Assembly: GCA_038736355.1 (NCBI GenBank)
Contig: JAVYML010000001.1
Location: 180,908 to 244,907 of the forward strand
Length of the DNA: 64,000 nucleotides
Direction: 5' to 3'
DNA from: Candidatus Hadarchaeales archaeon
GTDB taxonomy: Archaea; Hadarchaeota; Hadarchaeia; Hadarchaeales; WYZ-LMO6
The notes beneath the pieces were generated by a model, which was given only the letters and a program-made list of their open reading frames with translations, did no database searches and was not told the DNA's origin. Of this stretch, positions 1,895 to 20,405 are shown one piece after another (positions within the stretch are counted from its first letter, which is position 1; each line of letters opens with the position of its first letter). Position numbers and translations under genes: made by a program.

Positions 1895-2949
1895 GTGAAT
1901 TTCCTAGCCGTTTCCAAGCCACCACGGCGGAGGTTCTTGATCAGTGCACTATCGGAAAGGAGCTTGAGGAGGACCTCCTTCAGGGAGGAAGGGTTGCCGG
2001 GTTCGAAGAAGAGGCAGTTGTAGCCCTCCCTGGCGAACTCTAGGATACCGCCAGCCCTGGGACAGACCACTGGTGTTCCCACCGCCATGGCCTCCACCGC
2101 CGCCAGACCGAAGGCCTCCAAAGAAGAGGGAAGGACAAAAACATCCGCACCCGCCATGAGCTTGGCCACCTCCGGATAGGGAAGGCGGCCGAGCATCTTT
2201 ACCCTACCCTTCAATCCCTCCCTCTCCACCTCCCTCCTCAACCTCCCCTCCTCCGGTCCTTCCCCTGCTATCACCAGCTTGACTCCGGGCACTTCCCTGC
2301 TCACTTCCTCGAAGGCTTTGAGGAGCAAGTAAGGTCCCTTCCTCTTCACCAACCTTATAGCCGTGGCCACCAACCTCTCTCCATCTCCCACACCCACCCT
2401 CCGCCTGAACTCCCTACCGTCCACTCCCTCATGGAAGAGGGAGAGATCCACACCGTTGGGGATTACCCTTATCTTCTCCTCCGGAACACCCAAGGAAAGA
2501 CAGAACTCCTTGGAAGCCCCGCTCACCGCCACCACCCTGCTTGCCCGCTTGAGGAAGGAGGAGAGGGGTAGGTAGGCGGCCTTCCAGAATCCGGAGGAGG
2601 AATGGACGGAATGACAAGTGAGGACGGAAGGTATTCCTTTCCCCCGAGCAAAACGGGAAGCCGCCAAGGCAAGGGAGGAATACATGTCCACTCCATGCAC
2701 CACCGAGAAGTCCCCCGAACGCAGATACCTCCGGAGCTCGGCGAAGGTGAAGGGGGAGAGGAAGCGATTTTTCACGGAAAAACCCTTCAAACCCCTCACC
2801 TCCACCCCCTCCCTCTCCTCCGCTCCTTCCCTCGTGAAGACCACCACCTCCACCCCCAGCTTGGAAAGGAAGGAACTCAGTTCAGCCGCATAGGTAGCCA
2901 CCCCTCCTGTCAGGGGAGGGTATTCATCACCCACGAGCGCCACCCTCAT
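1843..2949 (-). CDS. glycosyltransferase family 4 (GT-B fold)
   Basis: 368 aa; GT4 hallmark EAMAVGTPVV, N-term GGVATYAAEL, C-term E-x7-E region. Confidence 0.8.
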   Translation of the reverse strand: MRVALVGDEYPPLTGGVATYAAELSSFLSKLGVEVVVFTREGAEEREGVEVRGLKGFSVKNRFLSPFTFAELRRYLRSGDFSVVHGVDMYSSLALAASRFARGKGIPSVLTCHSVHSSSGFWKAAYLPLSSFLKRASRVVAVSGASKEFCLSLGVPEEKIRVIPNGVDLSLFHEGVDGREFRRRVGVGDGERLVATAIRLVKRKGPYLLLKAFEEVSREVPGVKLVIAGEGPEEGRLRREVEREGLKGRVKMLGRLPYPEVAKLMAGADVFVLPSSLEAFGLAAVEAMAVGTPVVCPRAGGILEFAREGYNCLFFEPGNPSSLKEVLLKLLSDSALIKNLRRGGLETARKFTWEKTAELTLRLYEEIA

Positions 2950-2978
2950 CTTCCGCCTCCCGAAGAGGAGAGGTGAAT

Positions 2979-4031
2979 TTAGCCTTTTTGACGTTTAAAG
3001 GAAGAAGGTCCTGCCAGACCGAGATAGGAAAGGGCCCCCGCCCCCACCAGCGTGCTCAGGAGGAGGGAAATGGTTCTCTCGAGCACCGTGGCCGCCACGG
3101 CCGTAGGCAGCGGCACCCTGAAGAAGGTGAAGACGGAGAGCATGGTGGCCTCCACCAGCACCAGCCCTCCCGGTAGGAAGGGGACTAGACCGGCTATGGT
3201 GGGGAGGGTGGTGGCCAGGAGGAGCATGGGGAGAGAGGGGTAGTATCCTAGGGAAAGGAAGATCAGGTAGAGCCTGAGGAGGTCCAAGGACCAGATGAAA
3301 AGGGAGAAGAGGAATAGGGAAAAAACACATCTCCAGTTGGAGAGCACGGAACTGGAGCTCCGGTACATCTCCCTAATGGAGGAGAATAAGTCCTTTTTCT
3401 TCCCCACCAACCTGCCCAAGCGATTCATCCATCTCCCCAACATCCTTGCCCCCACCTCCTTTTTCACCATTCCAAAGACTAGGGAAGGGGGGAAGAGGAG
3501 GAGGAAGAGCCATAGGAGGAAGAACCAGGGAAAGGAAAAGGGAAGGGAAACCCCAAACCAAAACCCGAACAGAAGGAAGGAAATCACGACGGGAAAATCG
3601 AAGAGATGATCCACCATCGTGGTGGAGATGGCGAAGGAATAGGGAATCCCCTTGAGCTTACCCAGCAAATAAACCCTTCCAAGGGGATCTGCTCCCCCCC
3701 TCAAGAAGGGGGTGATGTTGTTGATGAAGATGCTCCCCGAAAGGATCAAGTAGAGCTCTTTCAGGGTCACCCCAAAACCAAGATAGGAGAGGGAGACCCT
3801 CCATCTAAGGGCCCACAAGAAGATGCTTCCGAAGTATAGGGCCACCGCTGCCACAAACCATCGAATCCTCACCCTCCTGAGCATCCAAATCGCGGAGTAA
3901 AGGTCTTCCCTCCACCAAAGGAAGAGAAGGGAGAGGACCAGGAAGAGCAACAGGAAGAGGAGAACCCTTTTCCAGCTTTTTTTCATCCTCTCCATATTTA
4001 TCTCATCCCTAAAAACTGAAGAGTATGGCAT
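2979..4031 (-). CDS. polytopic membrane protein, flippase-like (lysyl-PG synthase TM-domain / UPF0104 family)
   Basis: 350 aa, about 8 predicted TM helices, conserved RxRW motifs (RVRIRWFVAAVALYFG, WALRWRVSL). Sits next to the GT4 gene. Confidence 0.5.
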   Translation of the reverse strand: MPYSSVFRDEINMERMKKSWKRVLLFLLLFLVLSLLFLWWREDLYSAIWMLRRVRIRWFVAAVALYFGSIFLWALRWRVSLSYLGFGVTLKELYLILSGSIFINNITPFLRGGADPLGRVYLLGKLKGIPYSFAISTTMVDHLFDFPVVISFLLFGFWFGVSLPFSFPWFFLLWLFLLLFPPSLVFGMVKKEVGARMLGRWMNRLGRLVGKKKDLFSSIREMYRSSSSVLSNWRCVFSLFLFSLFIWSLDLLRLYLIFLSLGYYPSLPMLLLATTLPTIAGLVPFLPGGLVLVEATMLSVFTFFRVPLPTAVAATVLERTISLLLSTLVGAGALSYLGLAGPSSFKRQKG

Positions 4032-12315: not shown

Positions 12316-12779
12316 ACCTGGAGGAGTTCATGAGGGAGATGGTGAGGAGGGAAGAGGAAATCGTGATCTCCCTCAGGGAGAGCCTGGGAAAGATTTCCCA
12401 CCCTGCCGTGAAGGGGGTGCTGGAGGGGATTTCCCTGGACTCCGTGAAGCATGGGCGCATGTACGAGGCCGCCCTGAAGCTCCTGCATGGGATGAGGGAA
12501 GAGGTGAAGGAGGAACAGCTCAGGGAGCAGGAGGAGCTCCTGAGGAAGCACCTGAGATGGGAGGAGGAGCTGTTGGAAAAAATAGATTCCATGCTGCCAG
12601 AGGTAAAGGATGAAAAGGTGAGGATGCTCCTGCAGGCCATCCGCGAGGACGAGAGGAGGCATCACCTCCTCCTGAAAAGGGTGATGGAACTCCTCGTGAG
12701 GAGGGAAACCGTAACTAGCGAAGATCTCTGGGATCTCCTCTGGAAGAACGTTCCCTTCCACGGTACCCCAGGAGGATGA
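12312..12779 (+). CDS. hypothetical helical protein, possibly ferritin-like/diiron four-helix bundle
   Basis: 155 aa; overlaps the fprA stop (ATGA). ExxH-like pairs ([26 protein letters not shown]). Assignment is weak. Confidence 0.35.
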
Positions 12780-14902
12780 CTCCCCTGAGGGGAAGCCACG
12801 CACACCACGGTGCGGGACACGCACACCATCCCGGTGACTTCAAGCGCAGGCTGCTGGTCTCCGTTGCCCTGACCCTACCCGTCCTCCTCCTCTCGGAGAT
12901 GATCCAGGAATGGGCTGGCTTCAGCCTGAGGATACCCCTGCACGAGGGCGTCATGCTGGTGCTCTCCGGTGTCATCTACTTCTACGGGGGCTGGCCCTTC
13001 CTGAAGGGACTGGCGGAAGAGGTGAGGGGGAGAAGACCGGGGATGATGACGCTGGTGGGGACTGCCCTCTCCGTGGCCTTCTTCTATTCTTCCCTCACCC
13101 TCCTCAGAGGGGGGGAGGACTTTTTCTGGGAGCTCGCCACGCTGGTGGACCTCATGTTGCTGGGGCACTGGATGGAGGCAAAGAGCCTGCTGGGGGCCTC
13201 GAGGGCCCTGGAGAAGCTCGCCAAACTGATGCCCGTCCAGGCCCACCTCCTCGTAGGGGAGGAAATCAGGGAGGTAGCCGTCTCAGAGCTCAAGAAGGGA
13301 GACCTGGTACTGGTCAGACCTGGGGAAAAGGTGCCTTCGGATGGAAGGGTGGTGGATGGACTTTCTTCCGTGAACGAGGCCCTTCTCACCGGGGAGTCCA
13401 GGCCGGTGCCCAAGCGACCCGGAGACAGGGTAATAGGGGGATCCCTCAACCTGGAGGGCGCCCTGAAGGTGGAGATCGAGAAAACTGGGGAGGAGAGCTA
13501 CGTGGGCAGGGTCATGGAGATGGTGAGGAGGGCACAGGAGAGCAAGAGCAGAACGCAGGAGCTGGCGGACAGGGCTGCGGCCCTCCTCTTCTACGTCGCC
13601 CTAGGAGTGGCCCTGCTCAGCTCCCTCTACTGGTACCTCTCGGGCAGACCCTCCTTCGCTTTCGAGAGAGCGGTGACCGTGATGGTGGTGGCCTGCCCGC
13701 ACGCGCTCGGTCTGGCCATCCCCCTGGTGGTCTCCCTCTCCACCTCCCTTACCGCCAGGAGGGGAATCCTGGTGAGGGAGAGGAGGGCCTTCGAGAACCT
13801 AAGGAAGGTGGGGGTGGTGGTCTTCGACAAAACGGGGACCCTCACCTCTGGAACCCTGGAGGTCTCGGATTACCTTTCCCTCCTCCCGGAGGGAGAACTC
13901 CTCTCCCTAACCGCAGGAGTGGAGAAAAATTCCGAGCACCCGATAGCGAAGGCACTCGTGGAGTTCGCCGAGAGGAAAGGAGTGAAGGTGCCGGAGGCGG
14001 AGGACTTCCAGGCCCTGCCAGGAAGAGGGGCAAGGGCCAGAGTGCTGGAGAAGGAAGTGTGGGTGGGAGGAGCTACCCTCCTGAGGGAAAGGGGGGTGGA
14101 GCCCCCGGAGGAGAAGGAGGAATGGAGGGGCAAGACGGTGGTCCACGTGGTGGTGGAGGGAAAGCCTGCTGGATCCTTCGCCCTCTCCGACAGGGTGAGG
14201 GAGGAATCGAAGGAAGCAGTGGAAAGGCTGAAGGAAAAGGGAATGAAGGTCATGATGATCACGGGTGACGGGGAGGAGGCTGCAAGGGAGGTGGCCAGAG
14301 AACTGGGGATAGAGGAGTACCGGGCCCAGGCTTCGCCGGAGGAGAAGGCCGCGTGGATAGAGGAGCTGAGGAAAAGGGGAGAGACCGTCGCCATGGTAGG
14401 GGACGGGGTGAACGACGCCCCCGCGCTGGTGGCGGCGGATGTGGGCATAGCCATAGGGGCGGGAACGGACGTGGCCGTGGAGAGCGCGGACCTCGTGCTG
14501 GTGAGGAACGACCCGCGAGACGTAGCCTACCTGATGGAGTTCTCCCAAAGGAGCTACTCCAAGATGGTTCAGAACCTCTGGTGGGCGGCAGGGTACAACG
14601 CCCTCACCATCCCCCTCGCCTCCGGTATGTTCCAGGGATGGGGCCTCACCCTCAGCCCGGCCGTGGGTGCGCTTCTGATGTCCCTGAGCACCATCGTGGT
14701 GGCCTTAAACACCCAAACCCTCAGGAGATACGAGCAGGAGGGGGTGGAAGAGACGTTCGTGGACCCCGTCTGCGGAATGGAGGTGGAGCCCTCGAGCGCT
14801 GCCGGTAAAGTGGAGTACAAGGGCAGGATGTTCTATTTCTGCTCCAAGCGGTGCGAGGAAACCTTCAGGAAGGATCCGGAGAAATACGCGAAGGGCGGTT
14901 AG
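12776..14902 (+). CDS. heavy-metal (copper) translocating P1B-type ATPase with N-terminal His-rich segment and C-terminal TRASH/YHS domain
   Basis: 708 aa; CPH ([11 protein letters not shown]), [17 protein letters not shown]; N-terminal [16 protein letters not shown]; C-terminal DPVCGMEV...[11 protein letters not shown] (TRASH). Confidence 0.9.
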
Positions 14903-14939
14903 CTGCAACCTAAATTAGGCTGCGGGAGGAGGAGAGAGG

Positions 14940-15482
14940 ATGACGGTGCTCGGAACCTTCCTCTCCTCCGTCTGGTTCATCCTCCCAGCCTACGCCGCCA
15001 ACATGACACCCGTGGTGGCGGGGGGAGGGAGGCCCATCGACGGGGGGAGGAAGTTCGTGGATGGGAAACCACTGCTGGGCCCGGGCAAGACCGTTCGGGG
15101 GTTCTGCTGGGGTCTTCTCGTGGGGTTCTGCGTGGGACTGGTACAGGCCCTCCTCCATTCCCCTCTCGAAACCCACCTCACCCTCCTCTTCGGAAGTCCC
15201 CTGGAAACGGTGTTGGGGGGTCTCCTGCTCTCCCTCGGCGCCATGGTGGGGGACCTGGCGGGAAGTTTCTTCAAGAGGAGGGCCGGGGTGGAGAGGGGAG
15301 AACCCTTTCCCCTGCTAGACCAGCTGGACTTCGTGATCGGGGCCCTCCTCCTCTCCCTTCCGCTGGTCCTGTCACGCCTCACGTGGGAAATCCTAGCCGT
15401 CCTCTTCCTCCTCACTCCCCCCCTCCACCTCCTCACCAATTACGCCGGGTACAGGATGGGTCTCAAGAACAGACCCTACTGA
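14940..15482 (+). CDS. carS: CDP-archaeol synthase
   Basis: 180 aa; ILPAYAANMTPVV..GGGRPIDGGRKFVDGKPLLGPGKTVRG matches CarS (DUF46). Confidence 0.8.
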   Translation: MTVLGTFLSSVWFILPAYAANMTPVVAGGGRPIDGGRKFVDGKPLLGPGKTVRGFCWGLLVGFCVGLVQALLHSPLETHLTLLFGSPLETVLGGLLLSLGAMVGDLAGSFFKRRAGVERGEPFPLLDQLDFVIGALLLSLPLVLSRLTWEILAVLFLLTPPLHLLTNYAGYRMGLKNRPY

Positions 15483-15513
15483 CATCCTTTTTAGGGGAAA
15501 GGAGAGGTAGGAT

Positions 15514-16089
15514 GTGGAAGGGTTCCTCCATTTGAGTTGGGGGGAAGTCCAGCTCCTTTGTGAAAGACTTTCCAAGAAGATCGTTGAAGCGGGATACCGT
15601 CCAGACCTCATAGTGGCGGTGAGTAGAGGGGGCTTCCCGGTAGGCAGGATCCTTTGCGACCTGCTGGGAGTGGAGGAGCTGGCCTCAGTACAGGTGAAGT
15701 ACTATAGGGGGCCCGGGGAAACGGGGAAGAAACCCGAACTCCTACATCCTCCCAACGTCAAGATGGAAGGGAGGAAGGTGCTGGTGGTGGACGACGTGGC
15801 GGACACAGGACATTCTTTGGCCTTCATCCGCGACCTCTTCTCGGGAAAGGGTGAGGCGGGGTTCAGGGTAGCCACCCTTCACTACAAGCCCTGGAGTATC
15901 TTCAAACCCGACTTCTACGTGGAAGAGGTGAGGGAATGGGTGGTCTATCCCTGGGAGGTGAGGGAAACCATTCTGAAGCTGGTCCAGAGGCTCAGGGGGG
16001 AAGGAAAGGGGGAAGGGGAGATAATCTCGATCCTGGAGGGATGGGGCTTCGAAAGGGGTGAAGTGGAGGAGGTAGTGAAGGGTATTTAA
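15514..16089 (+). CDS. purine phosphoribosyltransferase (type I PRTase)
   Basis: 191 aa; PRPP-binding VLVVDDVADTGHSL. Confidence 0.8.
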   Translation: MEGFLHLSWGEVQLLCERLSKKIVEAGYRPDLIVAVSRGGFPVGRILCDLLGVEELASVQVKYYRGPGETGKKPELLHPPNVKMEGRKVLVVDDVADTGHSLAFIRDLFSGKGEAGFRVATLHYKPWSIFKPDFYVEEVREWVVYPWEVRETILKLVQRLRGEGKGEGEIISILEGWGFERGEVEEVVKGI

Positions 16090-16113
16090 CGGGGCACTGA
16101 ACACTTCTCAGGG

Positions 16114-16284
16114 ATGGGGAGGCTAACGGAAACTTGCGAACTCTGCGGGGGCACCACTTCCGAGCTCCGCCGCTGTCGCATCTGTGGCACGGCGGTATGC
16201 CTCAGGTGTTACTCCCCGGAAAGCGGGTTGTGCAAGAAATGCCTCTCCAAGGGATTGTGGGTGGAAAGGGAAGAAGAGGAGTGA
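16114..16284 (+). CDS. small double zinc-ribbon protein (8 Cys), unlisted in ORF track
   Basis: ATG at 16114; translation MGRLTETCELCGGTTSELRRCRICGTAVCLRCYSPESGLCKKCLSKGLWVEREEEE (56 aa), four CxxC pairs. Stop lies 6 nt before the Toprim gene. Confidence 0.5.
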   Translation: MGRLTETCELCGGTTSELRRCRICGTAVCLRCYSPESGLCKKCLSKGLWVEREEEE

Positions 16285-16290
16285 GCCGAA

Positions 16291-16680
16291 GTGAGGGAGG
16301 AAACCCTAGAAGAGCTCGAAGAAGTGTTACGGGAGCTCAGGATGGAAATTCGGGATGGAACACCCATACTGGTGGAGGGGAGGAGGGATAGGGAGGCCCT
16401 TCTCTCCCTGGGTATCGAAGGGAGGATTGTACACCTGAACAGGAACGGGAGTTTGTTGGAACGGCTGGAGGGGTTGGGAGGATACGAGAGGGTGGTGGTG
16501 CTCACGGACTTCGACCGAGAGGGGGAGGAACTCGCTCTGAGATGTTCCAAATACCTCAGGTTAATGGGGGTGGAGCCCCTCCTCGAACCTAGGGAGAAAC
16601 TGAAGAAACTGCTGAGGAAGGAAGTGAAGGATGTGGAGGGAATGGTCCATCTCCTCCGGTTCCTACGCGAAAAGGGATGA
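16291..16680 (+). CDS. small Toprim-domain protein
   Basis: 129 aa; ILVEGRRDREAL...VVVLTDFDREGEEL is the Toprim E / DxD signature. Confidence 0.6.
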   Translation: MREETLEELEEVLRELRMEIRDGTPILVEGRRDREALLSLGIEGRIVHLNRNGSLLERLEGLGGYERVVVLTDFDREGEELALRCSKYLRLMGVEPLLEPREKLKKLLRKEVKDVEGMVHLLRFLREKG

Positions 16681-16683
16681 ACC

Positions 16684-17118
16684 TTGCCCCCCCTCTGGCT
16701 CTTCCCCCTCCTCTCAGCCTTCCCCTTCTTCGAGGGCAGGTACGCCCTTCCCCTCGCCATCCTCTGGGGTCTCTCCCCCCTCACCGCCTACTTCCTCTGC
16801 ACCCTTCCCAACCTAGCCGTCATCCCGGCCATCCTGCTTGCCCTGGAGAGGATGGTACCTCCCCTGAGGAGGAGGTGGGAATGGGTGGACAACTTCTTCA
16901 GGCTGATGGTCAGGAAAAAACTCAGGAAAAAGCACTTCCTCGCCCTCTTCACCTTCGTCTCCCTACCCCTTCCAGGAACCGGGGCCTACACCGGAACGAT
17001 CCTAGCCTTCATGCTCGGGATGAGGGGATGGAAACCCGCTCTCACCGTGGCCCTGGGAGTGCTCACTGCCAATGCCCTAACCGCCCTCCCCGCCACCGGT
17101 CTCTCCCTCTGGCTTTAA
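16684..17118 (+). CDS. small multidrug-export-like membrane protein (Sm_multidrug_ex family)
   Basis: 144 aa, 4 TM; conserved LPLPGTGAYTG motif. Confidence 0.55.
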   Translation: MPPLWLFPLLSAFPFFEGRYALPLAILWGLSPLTAYFLCTLPNLAVIPAILLALERMVPPLRRRWEWVDNFFRLMVRKKLRKKHFLALFTFVSLPLPGTGAYTGTILAFMLGMRGWKPALTVALGVLTANALTALPATGLSLWL

Positions 17119-18195
17119 CCTGCCCCTCCCGTACTTGTACTCGATGGCACAGGAACCCTCCGAAGAAACCATGCACGGTCCCACCGGGCTCCTGGGTGTA
17201 CAGACCTTCCCGAAGAGGGGACAATCGGGGGGATCGAGGAGACCCCTCAGCACCCTGTCGCACCTGCAGGAGGGATGGGGCTTGAACTCCCTTCCCTCCA
17301 GCTCCTTCAGCTCGTCCTCGTACCTCTTCCTGGCATCATACTCTTCGAATTCCTCCTTGAGGGCCATGCCAGACTTCGGAATCACGGGAAAGCCCCTCCA
17401 GTCCAGATCGAAGGGCTCGAAAACTTCCTCCATTACCCTGAGTGCCTTCACATTGCCCTCCGGTCTCACCGAGCGTGTGTATTCATTTTTGACCCCCACT
17501 TCCCCCTTTTGGATCATCCTCGCCAGGAGGTAAACCCCCATCAACAGGTCGAGGGGTTCGAAACCCGCCACCACCTGGGGGATTCCGTACTTCTCCGCTA
17601 TCTCCTCGTAGGGCTTGGTACCTATCACGGTGGAAACATGCCCCGGTTCTATCAGCCCCTGAATCTTGGTCTCACCCATCTCCAGGAGGGCCTTGATAGC
17701 CGGGGGGATGTAACGATGACAGCAAAGGATGGAGAAGTTAGGGGGAGGTCTTCGGAGGAGGGTGACGGCCGTGGAAGGGGCGGTGGTTTCGAAACCTATG
17801 GCCAAGAAAACCACCTCCTTCTTCGTTTTCTCCGCAAGTCCCACCGCATCCCTGATGCTGTAAACCACTCTCACCTCTGCCCCCTCTCCCCTGAGCCCCG
17901 CGAGCGAACCACTTTCCCCCGGCACTCCCACCATATCCCCAAAAGTTGCCACCACCTTTCCCTTCCTTGCCAGCAAGAGGGCCTCCTCTATCTCCCTCTG
18001 GGTGGTCACACAAACGGGACATCCTGGTCCCTGCCTTATCTTGATCCCACAGGGTTCCAGAAGGCGATCCAAACCGTACCTCACGAGGGTATCCTGGTGG
18101 GTCCCGCACACGTGCATCAGGAAGAGGTTCAACCCCATCTTCCTGAGTTCCCCCACGATCCTGCTCGCGGTCTCCCTATCCCTGAACCTGAACAT
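17077..18195 (-). CDS. hypD: [NiFe]-hydrogenase maturation factor HypD
   Basis: 372 aa; CGTHQ, GPGCPVCVT, C-terminal CxxC...CPVC motifs. Confidence 0.9.
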   Translation of the reverse strand: MFRFRDRETASRIVGELRKMGLNLFLMHVCGTHQDTLVRYGLDRLLEPCGIKIRQGPGCPVCVTTQREIEEALLLARKGKVVATFGDMVGVPGESGSLAGLRGEGAEVRVVYSIRDAVGLAEKTKKEVVFLAIGFETTAPSTAVTLLRRPPPNFSILCCHRYIPPAIKALLEMGETKIQGLIEPGHVSTVIGTKPYEEIAEKYGIPQVVAGFEPLDLLMGVYLLARMIQKGEVGVKNEYTRSVRPEGNVKALRVMEEVFEPFDLDWRGFPVIPKSGMALKEEFEEYDARKRYEDELKELEGREFKPHPSCRCDRVLRGLLDPPDCPLFGKVCTPRSPVGPCMVSSEGSCAIEYKYGRGRLKPEGETGGGEGG

Positions 18196-18197
18196 GC

Positions 18198-18416
18198 TCA
18201 GCCCTGCGAGAGGAGTTCCTGCCAGAGCCTCAGGCTCTCCCTCGCCTCCTCCTCGTCTAAGACTTGGATGGCAAAACCGGCATGGACGATCACGTACTGC
18301 CCCACCTCCACCTCCACGAGGGAGATGTCCACTTCCCTCAGGGTGCCATCCCCGAAGTCCACCTTGGCGAGCTCACCCTTCTTCTCCACCACCCTCGCCG
18401 GAATGGCCAGACACAT
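18198..18416 (-). CDS. hypC: [NiFe]-hydrogenase maturation factor HypC
   Basis: 72 aa; starts MCLAIP. Confidence 0.9.
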   Translation of the reverse strand: MCLAIPARVVEKKGELAKVDFGDGTLREVDISLVEVEVGQYVIVHAGFAIQVLDEEEARESLRLWQELLSQG

Positions 18417-18917
18417 CTACCTTCCCTCCCCTTCCCCGCATAAATCCCTCAGCACGAGGGAGAGGGTATCGGCCAGCCTCTCGGCCGCCTCCTCCAGCTC
18501 CCTGGTCATTCCTTCCCCGAAATCCGTATCCCCGGGCTGGACACAGAGGAGGGCCACTTTGCATCCCACCACTTCCCTCACGTATTCGCAGAAGATCCTG
18601 AGGGGGAGGAGATGCGTGGAAACGGTTTCTACGGGTAGCTCTTCCGAAGTCAAGAACCTGCTTTCCCCCGGTCTCAGCCCCAAGAGGGCTGCGTCCACGA
18701 GGAGGAGATGGCTGGGCCTGACCCTCTCCACCTCCTCCAAGAAATTCTCCGCCACCGTTTCGCATTCCAGCAATTCCACCCCCTTTCCCACCCTTCCTTC
18801 CATCTTCCTCACAACCTCCAGTCCCACCGCGTCGTCCTTTCTGAGGGGATTACCTATTCCCATCACCATGGCCTTTCTGCAACCCGCAAACCATTCCCTG
18901 AGCTCCCTCTCCATCAT
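18417..18917 (-). CDS. hydrogenase maturation endopeptidase (HycI/HyaD family)
   Basis: 166 aa; MGIGNPLRKDDAVG motif. Confidence 0.85.
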   Translation of the reverse strand: MMERELREWFAGCRKAMVMGIGNPLRKDDAVGLEVVRKMEGRVGKGVELLECETVAENFLEEVERVRPSHLLLVDAALLGLRPGESRFLTSEELPVETVSTHLLPLRIFCEYVREVVGCKVALLCVQPGDTDFGEGMTRELEEAAERLADTLSLVLRDLCGEGEGR

Positions 18918-18947
18918 AGAAGGGGGTAGGAAGGAAGGAAAAGACTT

Positions 18948-20405
18948 TCAGGGTCTCTTGAGGGTGTAAAGGAGGTTGCGGTCCTTATCGTAGATCTTTA
19001 CCTCTAGGGGCATCTTGCCCAGGGCGAAGTGGGTGGCACAGGCGTAGCAGGGATCGTAGGCCCTGAAGGCCATTTCAATCATGTTCAAGATCCCATCCGT
19101 GACCTTCCCTCCAGAAATGAGGGCCTTGGCAGCATCCCTTATGGACATGCAGATGGGAGCCACATTGTTGGTGGTGGCCACGATGAGGTTGGCCTTCTTG
19201 ATCAAACCTTCCTCCGTGAGTTGGTAGTGATGGTACAGGGTCCCCCTGGCCGCCTCCACTACCCCCACACCTTCCCCTGGAGTCCCCACCGGATTCCTCA
19301 CTTCCTTGCTGGTGATCTCAGGATCCTGGGCAAGCTCCAGTGCCCTCTCGCAGGCATAGAGGAGCTCTATCAGCCTGGCCCAGTGGAAGGCCAGGGTGGA
19401 GTGTACGGGTTTTCCTCCCAGCGTTTCGTACATCCTCTCGTACTCCTGCTGGGCAAGGGGTGTGGCCATCCCATCGGCGGCATTTAACCTTGCCAGTGGA
19501 CCCACTCTGTAAATACCGCTGTCGGGACCGTCCACCAATCCCTTCCACCCCACCTTCTTCAAGTAGGTGAACTTCACGTAAGTCCACTCCTCCACGTGCT
19601 CCCCTATCACATCCAGGTACTGGGATGGTGCAAACTTTACAAACTCCCTGCCATTGGGATCCACCACCCTGATCTTCCCGTCGTAGAAGTTCACGCGGTT
19701 CTTCTCATCGACCAATCCCATGTAGTAGGTCCTCAGGGTGTAGGCATCACTCTTTATCAGCTCCACGTATTTCTGGTTCTTCAAAACGACCTGATCGAAG
19801 ATCTGGAGGGCCTTTTGGGCAAAGTCCACGCAGGACCTGGCCATCTTCTCTATTTCCTTCCTCTCTTCCTCGCTCAAGGGTTTGCTCACCCCTCCGGGCA
19901 AGCCGCACACGGGATGGGTGGCCTTTCCACCCAGGATGGCCGTAATCCTCTGACCATAGGCCCTGTGTTTGATCACTTCCTTCCCCACTTCCAGCCCCAC
20001 CTTCTTGATCACTCCCAGGATGTTCCTCTCGGCCGGTGGAGCATCCGGACCCACCACGAAGTCTGGTCCCCCTAGATAGAAGAAGTGCAGGGTGTGGTCG
20101 TAGATGTAATAACCCGAATAGATCAGCTCCCTGAGCTTCTTGGCCGCGGGCGGCGGATCCACGTGGAAGGCTGCATCCAGGGCCTTCGTGGAGGCCATGT
20201 GGTGGGCCACCGGACAGACACCACAGATCCTGGAGGTGATTTGTGGCATCAGTTCCGCCCTTCTTCCCTCACAGAAACGCTCGAAGCCCCTCAGCTCTGG
20301 AACCTGGAGGTAAGCGTTTGCCACGTCACCCTTCTCGTCCAAGAAAATCGAGATCTTTCCGTGGCCTTCGAGTCTGGTGATGGGATCTATGGTGATGACC
20401 TTCAT
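18948..20405 (-). CDS. [NiFe]-hydrogenase large subunit (cytoplasmic group 3-like)
   Basis: 485 aa; N-terminal RLEGHGKI...RICGVCPVAHH; C-terminal DPCYACATH followed by a cleavable tail. Confidence 0.9.
   Translation of the reverse strand: MKVITIDPITRLEGHGKISIFLDEKGDVANAYLQVPELRGFERFCEGRRAELMPQITSRICGVCPVAHHMASTKALDAAFHVDPPPAAKKLRELIYSGYYIYDHTLHFFYLGGPDFVVGPDAPPAERNILGVIKKVGLEVGKEVIKHRAYGQRITAILGGKATHPVCGLPGGVSKPLSEEERKEIEKMARSCVDFAQKALQIFDQVVLKNQKYVELIKSDAYTLRTYYMGLVDEKNRVNFYDGKIRVVDPNGREFVKFAPSQYLDVIGEHVEEWTYVKFTYLKKVGWKGLVDGPDSGIYRVGPLARLNAADGMATPLAQQEYERMYETLGGKPVHSTLAFHWARLIELLYACERALELAQDPEITSKEVRNPVGTPGEGVGVVEAARGTLYHHYQLTEEGLIKKANLIVATTNNVAPICMSIRDAAKALISGGKVTDGILNMIEMAFRAYDPCYACATHFALGKMPLEVKIYDKDRNLLYTLKRP

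Follow-up and report, generated by a model that had tools for sequence, protein, structure and literature searches.

A small Toprim gene and a linked gene for a predicted cross-braced zinc finger in Hadarchaeota

The 64,000-nt stretch of contig JAVYML010000001.1 from a Candidatus Hadarchaeales archaeon that was analyzed here (the window, in whose coordinates all positions are given) carries two short adjacent open reading frames (ORFs) on its forward strand. The first (16114..16284, with an ATG at 16114 and a TGA at 16282-16284) encodes a predicted zinc mini-protein of 56 aa (Zn protein), and the second (GTG at 16291 to 16680) encodes a stand-alone Toprim protein of 129 aa after a spacer of 6 nt. 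This arrangement, which had been reported in an earlier note on the same DNA, was confirmed. The Zn gene was recognized from the ORF listing, a family alignment, the ratio of nonsynonymous to synonymous substitution rates (dN/dS), and a sub-threshold match to Pfam Prok-RING_2; the Toprim gene was recognized from Pfam, NCBIfam, invariant alignment columns, an AlphaFold2 model, and a profile search against the PDB. Both are real and conserved genes, and they are tightly linked. The pair is an addition, made in one lineage, to a Toprim family that is widespread in archaea; it is not the split primase that the earlier note had considered.

The Toprim protein and the Zn protein

The Toprim protein (16291..16680, forward strand) scores above the curated cut-offs of both Pfam Toprim (26.8 bits versus 23.1) and Toprim_4 (26.0 bits versus 25), and its Glu and DxD motifs are intact, as expected of the stand-alone Toprim protein proposed earlier. 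Glu29 is encoded at 16375-16377, and the two aspartates of the DxD motif, Asp73 and Asp75, are encoded at 16507-16509 and 16513-16515, respectively. Glu29, Asp33, Asp73, Asp75, and Gly78 are invariant over 40 Toprim sequences with identities down to 32%, and the catalytic capacity is therefore probably retained; Glu116 is nearly invariant (at least 90% of the 40 sequences). The AlphaFold2 model, with a mean predicted local distance difference test score (pLDDT) of 91.9, takes the shape of a four-stranded core, and the 129-aa protein thus combines the Glu motif, the DxD motif, and the Rossmann-like alpha/beta core that define the Toprim superfamily. The chain starts 25 residues before the Glu motif and consists of the Toprim core and flanking helices only. 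Proteins of metagenome-assembled genomes in GenBank are 100% identical to it.

In the profile search against the PDB, the best match is 1T6T (E = 4.5e-18), which covers the window protein over its full length, followed by RNase M5 (1.1e-4), a small Toprim protein of Geobacillus (1.2e-4), and DnaG (5.9e-3). In NCBIfam, the protein lies near five PRK04017 models named "hypothetical protein" (E = 3e-24 and 85 bits versus a cut-off of 129 at best). Because they fall below the cut-off of every PRK04017 sub-model, the Hadarchaeota Toprims are probably a separate, new branch of the known PRK04017/1T6T family, which comprises 1T6T itself (a "putative protein" of Aquifex aeolicus) and the archaeal small Toprims of PRK04017, annotated as hypothetical. 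Members of this family have about 110 to 150 aa, with an N-terminal helix, the Toprim core, and C-terminal helices. The upstream Zn gene is found only in the Hadarchaeota branch. The nearest characterized enzyme by profile is RNase M5, the bacterial 5S rRNA maturase (PDB accession numbers 6TG6 and 6TPQ), which cleaves both strands of the 5S rRNA precursor with the help of uL18. Its match is confined to the Toprim core (profile positions 24 to 91), the C-terminal RNA-binding domain of RNase M5 is absent here, and the RNase M5 model is not among the NCBIfam matches of the window protein at E ≤1. The partner of RNase M5 is a ribosomal protein, whereas the neighbor of the window Toprim is a predicted zinc finger. 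The description of the pair as a minimal, RNase M5-like nucleic-acid-processing module is thus a fair one for the Toprim half, given the E value of the RNase M5 profile.

The Zn protein (16114..16284, forward strand) has cysteine residues at positions 8, 11, 21, 24, 29, 32, 40, and 43 in the order CxxC-x9-CxxC-x4-CxxC-x7-CxxC; two of the four pairs extend to CxxCG, the tail is acidic, and the motif C(K/R)(K/R)CLxKGLWV of the C-terminal helix is conserved. Over all fetched loci, 104 copies of the gene were collected, with 82 distinct 150-nt cores. The median dN/dS is 0.19 (596 unsaturated pairs), and the mean difference is 0.70 at synonymous versus 0.22 at nonsynonymous sites. Seven of the cysteine residues, Gly47, Leu48, and Trp49 are invariant in the core family alignment, and the position of the sixth ligand is occupied by Cys, Asp, or His and by nothing else, as would be expected if the residue binds a metal. 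The 56-aa ORF is a real gene under purifying selection, and the conservation that the earlier note had asked of it is borne out by these 82 variants. In the Candidatus Hadarchaeum clade, the sixth ligand is Asp (CSRDF versus CSRCF; L028, L045, and L048; P0069-P0071, P0073, and P0082). A distant relative, P0090, has His at this position and consists of two tandem copies of the module; the 136-aa product of its neighboring gene was considered as a Toprim protein and rejected.

A single-protein search and a 14-sequence profile search gave 23 clusters of the Zn family at E <1e-19, and every cluster bearing a source name comes from Hadarchaeota; the family is restricted to this phylum. The gene had been taken for an unannotated one, but the exact 56-aa protein is already in GenBank as MEM0358547.1 under the name "orotate phosphoribosyltransferase." At JGI, the relative P0068, which is 76% identical to the window protein, is named "ribosomal protein L40E," and relatives of the Toprim protein are named RNase M5, riboflavin-pathway reductase, and dTMP kinase. 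These public names look wrong, as none has support from domain searches. A relative in which the Zn module is fused to a phosphoribosyltransferase (PRT) was considered as the source of the GenBank name and rejected: there is no link in NCBIfam or Pfam and no such fusion among the profile matches.

No Pfam family matches the Zn protein above its curated cut-off. The top match is Prok-RING_2 (PF14445; 21.1 bits versus a cut-off of 22.4), which also matches 5 of 22 family members at E ≤0.1 (best, 7.4e-5), and it is followed by weak matches to the C1, ZZ, FYVE (E = 0.35; 11.4 bits versus 27.8), AN1 (zf-AN1; 10.8 bits versus 27.9), and B-box fingers. The top sequence match of the family profile in the PDB, the AN1 finger of Cuz1, is not significant (E = 0.096). 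The predicted model (pLDDT 81.9) consists of short hairpins and a C-terminal helix that begins at the last CxxC, and its fold matches the cross-braced fingers of the FYVE type, with eight ligands in four pairs, the cross-brace, and the C-terminal helix that define the FYVE layout. From superpositions of the model, the ligands are expected to be paired so that one zinc ion would be bound by Cys8, Cys11, Cys29, and Cys32 and the other by Cys21, Cys24, Cys40, and Cys43. The Zn protein is thus probably a binuclear cross-braced finger of the FYVE/AN1/RING-like class, neither two zinc ribbons nor a finger of the DnaG type; the "double zinc ribbon" of the earlier note is probably a wrong label, and no zinc-ribbon signal was obtained.

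The ligand spacing of the Zn protein is shared with the FYVE/AN1/RING-like binuclear treble clefs, and the differences lie elsewhere. The phosphoinositide motifs of FYVE domains (WxxD, R(R/K)HHCR, and RVC) are absent; RRHHCRxCG of FYVE corresponds to ELRRCRICG in the window protein, at a position that varies within the family. The consensus of AN1 fingers is C-x2-C-x9-12-C-x1-2-C-x4-C-x2-H-x5-H-x-C; the Zn protein aligns with the Cuz1 AN1 finger over its first six ligands, whereas the last pair of AN1, HxxxxxHxC, is replaced by a CxxC after seven residues. The Zn protein is also set apart from this class by its archaeal origin, its stand-alone chain of 56 aa, and a GLW helix motif of its own. 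When the family profile was searched against 1.84 billion representatives, 69 matches were obtained, mostly stand-alone 8-Cys proteins of 44 to 70 aa, with a few larger proteins above the Pfam FYVE or zf-AN1 cut-offs; none of the 69 carries a Toprim or PRT domain fused to the Zn module. The protein fits the definition of the archaeal C(P)XCG mini-proteins (PMC11241148) through CELCG (residues 8 to 12) and CRICG (residues 21 to 25). Haloferax encodes dozens of such zinc-finger mini-proteins with diverse roles, and HVO_2753 and HVO_0758 resemble the Zn protein in being stand-alone proteins of <70 aa with two CxxCG and two CxxC motifs (PMC11241148, PMC10716476); the Zn family, in contrast to the Haloferax proteins, is confined to Hadarchaeota, and no sequence relationship between the two came to light, although no search aimed at one was made. 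A literature search on archaeal FYVE-like small proteins returned nothing relevant, and the Zn protein represents a subfamily, confined to one phylum and not described so far, within a known fold class.

Combinations of a zinc module with a Toprim domain are common, as in DnaG, T7 gp4, and RecR, and the earlier note had compared the pair with a split DnaG, in which the Zn protein would be the zinc-binding domain and the Toprim protein would polymerize primers. The structures expected of the two proteins argue against such a primase. DnaG has a single-zinc CHC2 ribbon, whereas the fold of the Zn protein is predicted to be an FYVE/AN1-like binuclear cross-brace on a separate polypeptide; zf-CHC2 matches neither the window protein (E ≤1) nor the 22 family members (E ≤0.1). 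The primase N-terminal subdomain, which forms the active-site cleft together with the Toprim domain, is absent from the 129-aa protein, for which Pfam gives Toprim-type matches only, and the helicase-binding domain of DnaG is absent as well. In addition, the Toprim protein is matched equally well by RecR, RNase M5, and DnaG; the 69 profile matches include no fused ancestor; and in most archaea the members of the Toprim family occur without a Zn partner. In favor of a primase, one lineage (L164, 2501-4166, GCA_038861785.1; also L165 and L166) can be cited, where a CDP-archaeol synthase (CarS) gene, a PRT gene, the Zn gene, and the small Toprim gene are followed by a gene for a 376-aa Toprim_4 protein, which is DnaG-like and of the size of archaeal DnaG, so that two Toprim genes lie back to back. 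We regard a split primase as very improbable.

Linkage of the two genes in Hadarchaeota

Loci were collected from both sides of the pair. A Toprim scan covered one genome per GTDB species with a 10-sequence Toprim alignment, and the Zn hits were then located with a hidden Markov model; conversely, the Zn alignment was run against metagenomes and yielded 61 loci. At 32 of the 40 Hadarchaeota species loci, the Toprim gene is immediately preceded by a Zn gene in the same orientation; the Zn gene is missing at 7, and 1 locus is cut off and cannot be judged, which corresponds to 32/39 judgeable loci. Among the 61 metagenome Zn loci, the Toprim gene follows immediately downstream in 45 and not in 15, with 1 locus cut off (45/60 judgeable). 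Within Hadarchaeota, the co-occurrence that the earlier note had proposed to check therefore holds as a tight same-strand pairing, but it is not obligate, as each gene also occurs alone. The order, strand, and short spacer are kept across the clade while the Toprim identity falls to about 40%, and the junction is intact even at loci where a rearrangement has put the PRT gene past the Toprim gene in the opposite orientation (L011, L015, L023, and others).

The spacers are informative about expression. The distance from the Zn stop codon to the Toprim start codon is mostly about -4 to 56 nt (one of 73 nt), which is too short for a promoter. A TATA-like element, GGTATTTAAC (16081..16090, forward strand; consensus match), is located about 31 nt before the Zn ATG and overlaps the stop codon of the preceding PRT gene; it is a candidate archaeal promoter of a Zn-Toprim bicistron. 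Over 74 distinct upstream sequences, GGTATTTAAC is found at -31 in the clade of the window, and most of the remaining Hadarchaeota loci have AACNTTTAATC at -37 to -40; a TATA-like box at a fixed distance is found upstream of the Zn gene only. The Shine-Dalgarno-like GAGGAGTGA (16276..16284, forward strand), recognized from its sequence, coincides with the final codons of the Zn gene, its stop included, 6 nt before the Toprim GTG, and its position suggests coupled translation of the two genes; at other loci, the spacers carry the Shine-Dalgarno-like motifs GAGGT, GGAG, or GGTGG. Taken together, the short spacers, these motifs, and the TATA-like box before the Zn gene point to a single transcript. 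In one clade (L034, L148, L151, L156, and L157), the 40-nt spacer contains the perfect palindrome TTGTTACACGTGTAACAA, a putative protein-binding site or hairpin that could modulate Toprim expression. In the window, and likewise in L013 and L102, the two ORFs share a frame, with TGA and two codons between them (16282-16293), so that read-through of the TGA at 16282-16284 would yield a Zn-Toprim fusion protein. Stop-codon read-through or a recent gene split was rejected as an explanation, because most loci do not preserve the common frame; in the window it is probably coincidental.

The pair stands within a larger run on one strand of the window. Upstream are a CarS-like CDP-archaeol synthase gene (14940..15482, forward strand; assigned by Pfam on syntenic loci and phmmer mapping) and a purine-type PRT gene (15514..16089, forward strand; Pfam Pribosyltran, 2.6e-20, and neighborhood map), which ends 24 nt 5' of the Zn gene and whose nearest NCBIfam model, below its cut-off, is xanthine PRTase. 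Downstream, a gene for a membrane protein of the Sm_multidrug_ex family (16684..17118, forward strand; Pfam PF06695, 5.2e-28) begins 3 nt 3' of the Toprim gene and is syntenic in most Hadarchaeota loci. In other clades, the PRT gene reads in the opposite direction and is located before the Zn gene at some loci and after the Toprim gene at others. The unit of conservation is a phylum-wide block of CarS, PRT, Zn, Toprim, PRT, and Sm_multidrug_ex, and the Zn-Toprim junction is its most constant part, yet not obligatory. On the two flanks of the window, a P-type metal ATPase with a C-terminal YHS domain (12776-14902, forward strand) and a group comprising HypD, HypC, a HycI-type protease, and the large subunit of a [NiFe] hydrogenase (17077-20405, reverse strand) are encoded, and the synteny of both flanks is kept in related Hadarchaeales contigs. 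A search of Rfam over 14500-18000 gave chance-level matches only.

In the neighbor-joining tree of the Toprim proteins, all Zn-linked genes fall into a single large clade, within which two Zn-less leaves are nested; the other Zn-less Hadarchaeota branch off at the base. The tree suggests one gain of the Zn gene, followed by long retention and a few later uncouplings.

Several observations weigh against a functional partnership of the two products. The 15 metagenome Zn loci that lack a Toprim gene have none within 2.5 kb on either strand, and the Zn gene still adjoins CarS and a divergent PRT gene there; 7 Hadarchaeota species loci carry the Toprim gene without the Zn gene; distant relatives of the Zn gene adjoin unrelated genes, such as those for a PRT (L163) and an RNA ligase (L167); and our search of the literature on archaeal small Toprims and COG1658 found no paper on the family and no demonstrated activity. 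The block itself is functionally mixed and syntenic, and the adjacency may be inherited gene order. A Zn-only sub-lineage (L112, L114-L122, L127, L129, L141, and L144) has CarS, a divergent PRT gene, and the Zn gene, with unrelated genes in place of Toprim, e.g., one for a 379-aa beta-helix-like secreted protein in L120 and a convergent metallo-beta-lactamase-like gene in L141.

The main alternative to a partnership is that the Zn protein is an independent small regulator or protein-binding adaptor, which would share the Toprim transcript only through its insertion into an ancient block. Within the conserved neighborhood, either gene can be present while its partner is missing, the block mixes lipid, purine-salvage, and membrane genes, and the wider 8-Cys superfamily consists of stand-alone proteins of 44 to 70 aa in varied contexts, much as the C(P)XCG mini-proteins of Haloferax are numerous and diverse in role (PMC11241148, PMC10716476). 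On the other hand, the order, strand, and spacer of the pair outlast rearrangements that move the other neighbors, down to a Toprim identity of about 40%, and there is no space for a separate Toprim promoter. We consider independence of the two products possible but on the unlikely side.

The PRT gene offers another candidate partner, with which the Zn protein would form a regulatory or nucleic-acid-binding module while the Toprim protein is a bystander. In ComF proteins, a zinc finger is fused to a PRT domain. Nearly every Zn gene has a PRT gene within about 0.5 kb, a divergent one adjoins the Zn gene in the Zn-only loci, and the gene of the distant relative P0097 is located 1 nt upstream of a PRT gene; the name "orotate phosphoribosyltransferase" in GenBank would fit as well, but it stands without any domain match. 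At many loci, however, CarS is directly upstream of the Zn gene, and the sole PRT gene lies beyond Toprim on the other strand (L015, L023, L027-L030, and L036). The Zn protein matches no PRT-family model in Pfam or NCBIfam, and no Zn-PRT fusion is present among the profile matches. A partnership with the PRT is thus improbable.

Small Toprim loci in other archaea

The Zn gene was found at none of 40 Toprim loci outside Hadarchaeota, which represent Methanothrix, Methanocella, GoM-Arc1, Bathyarchaeia, Nitrososphaeria, Thermoplasmata, Iainarchaeum, and Mnemosynella. The earlier note had made its reading depend on a conserved small ORF and on a Toprim protein outside the known families that function without a zinc partner; the first part stood, and the second did not, since the Toprim protein most likely belongs to the known archaeal/Aquifex family, which lacks the Zn partner at these 40 loci and in the basal Hadarchaeota.

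Other genes occupy the upstream position at these loci. In 28 of them, from Methanothrix, Methanocella, GoM-Arc1, Thermoplasmata, Iainarchaeum, and Mnemosynella, a small DUF167/YggU gene precedes the Toprim gene on the same strand (L056, L058, L060-L063, L065-L071, L073-L077, L080, L084, L085, L087-L090, L093, L094, and L096; mostly at about 2500-3000 in each locus). In 26 of the 28 it directly adjoins the Toprim gene, with no more than about 150 nt between them, and in L069 and L085 it is about 0.7 to 1.3 kb upstream. Neither the Hadarchaeota loci nor the 64-kb window showed a DUF167 gene. A literature search on DUF167 together with Toprim returned nothing relevant, and DUF167-Toprim looks like a conserved, undescribed gene pair. 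A gene for a class-I Tyr/Trp-tRNA synthetase immediately precedes the small Toprim gene in Bathyarchaeia and Nitrososphaeria (L057, L078, L079, L081, L082, L083, L092, and L095) and ends 17 to 24 nt before it, or 163 nt in L081; the assignment was confirmed with Pfam tRNA-synt_1b for L057, L078, and L081. An Endo_dU endonuclease gene is upstream of Toprim in L091. The DUF167 arrangement suggests that the Toprim family typically has a small co-expressed partner.

A possible two-protein nuclease

Our preferred reading, to which we give a probability of roughly 0.4, is that the pair encodes a co-expressed metal-dependent nuclease or nickase and its clade-specific zinc-finger accessory subunit. 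The two genes would form a bicistronic unit in one large Hadarchaeota clade. The Toprim product would cut or nick nucleic acids in a Mg2+-dependent manner through a metal site composed of Glu29 and Asp73-x-Asp75. Because the small Toprims tend to be co-expressed with a small partner or a translation gene, RNA is the more likely substrate. The Zn protein, probably with two zinc ions held in the predicted FYVE/AN1-like cross-brace, may serve as an adaptor or substrate-recognition partner and would contact the Toprim protein through its conserved basic GLW helix. Elsewhere in archaea, this role may fall to DUF167, whose gene has the corresponding position upstream of Toprim.

A wider form of this reading would treat the archaeal small Toprims in general as two-component nucleases that obtain their specificity from a small partner encoded upstream; we think it unlikely that this holds across the family. 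The partner would then be DUF167 in Methanosarcinia, Methanocellales, Thermoplasmata, and Iainarchaeota and would have been replaced by the Zn mini-protein in one Hadarchaeota clade, a substitution that we consider equally doubtful.

The operonic pairing of the Zn and Toprim genes is undescribed in the literature searched. The current understanding is not overturned by it, and its value is that of an experimental lead rather than of a surprise. The Zn protein is a phylum-restricted and well-conserved addition to the little-studied zinc-finger mini-proteins of archaea, and its name in GenBank needs correcting. Small stand-alone Toprims occur in many archaeal phyla and in Aquifex, and a crystal structure has been available since 2004 with no function assigned. 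A consistently co-expressed small partner would offer a concrete two-protein system to express and assay, and the links to a zinc finger, DUF167, and a tRNA synthetase point toward RNA metabolism. If the two-component reading were true, it would provide a function for three uncharacterized families at once, and a eukaryote-style FYVE-like finger would act as the subunit of an RNase in an archaeon.
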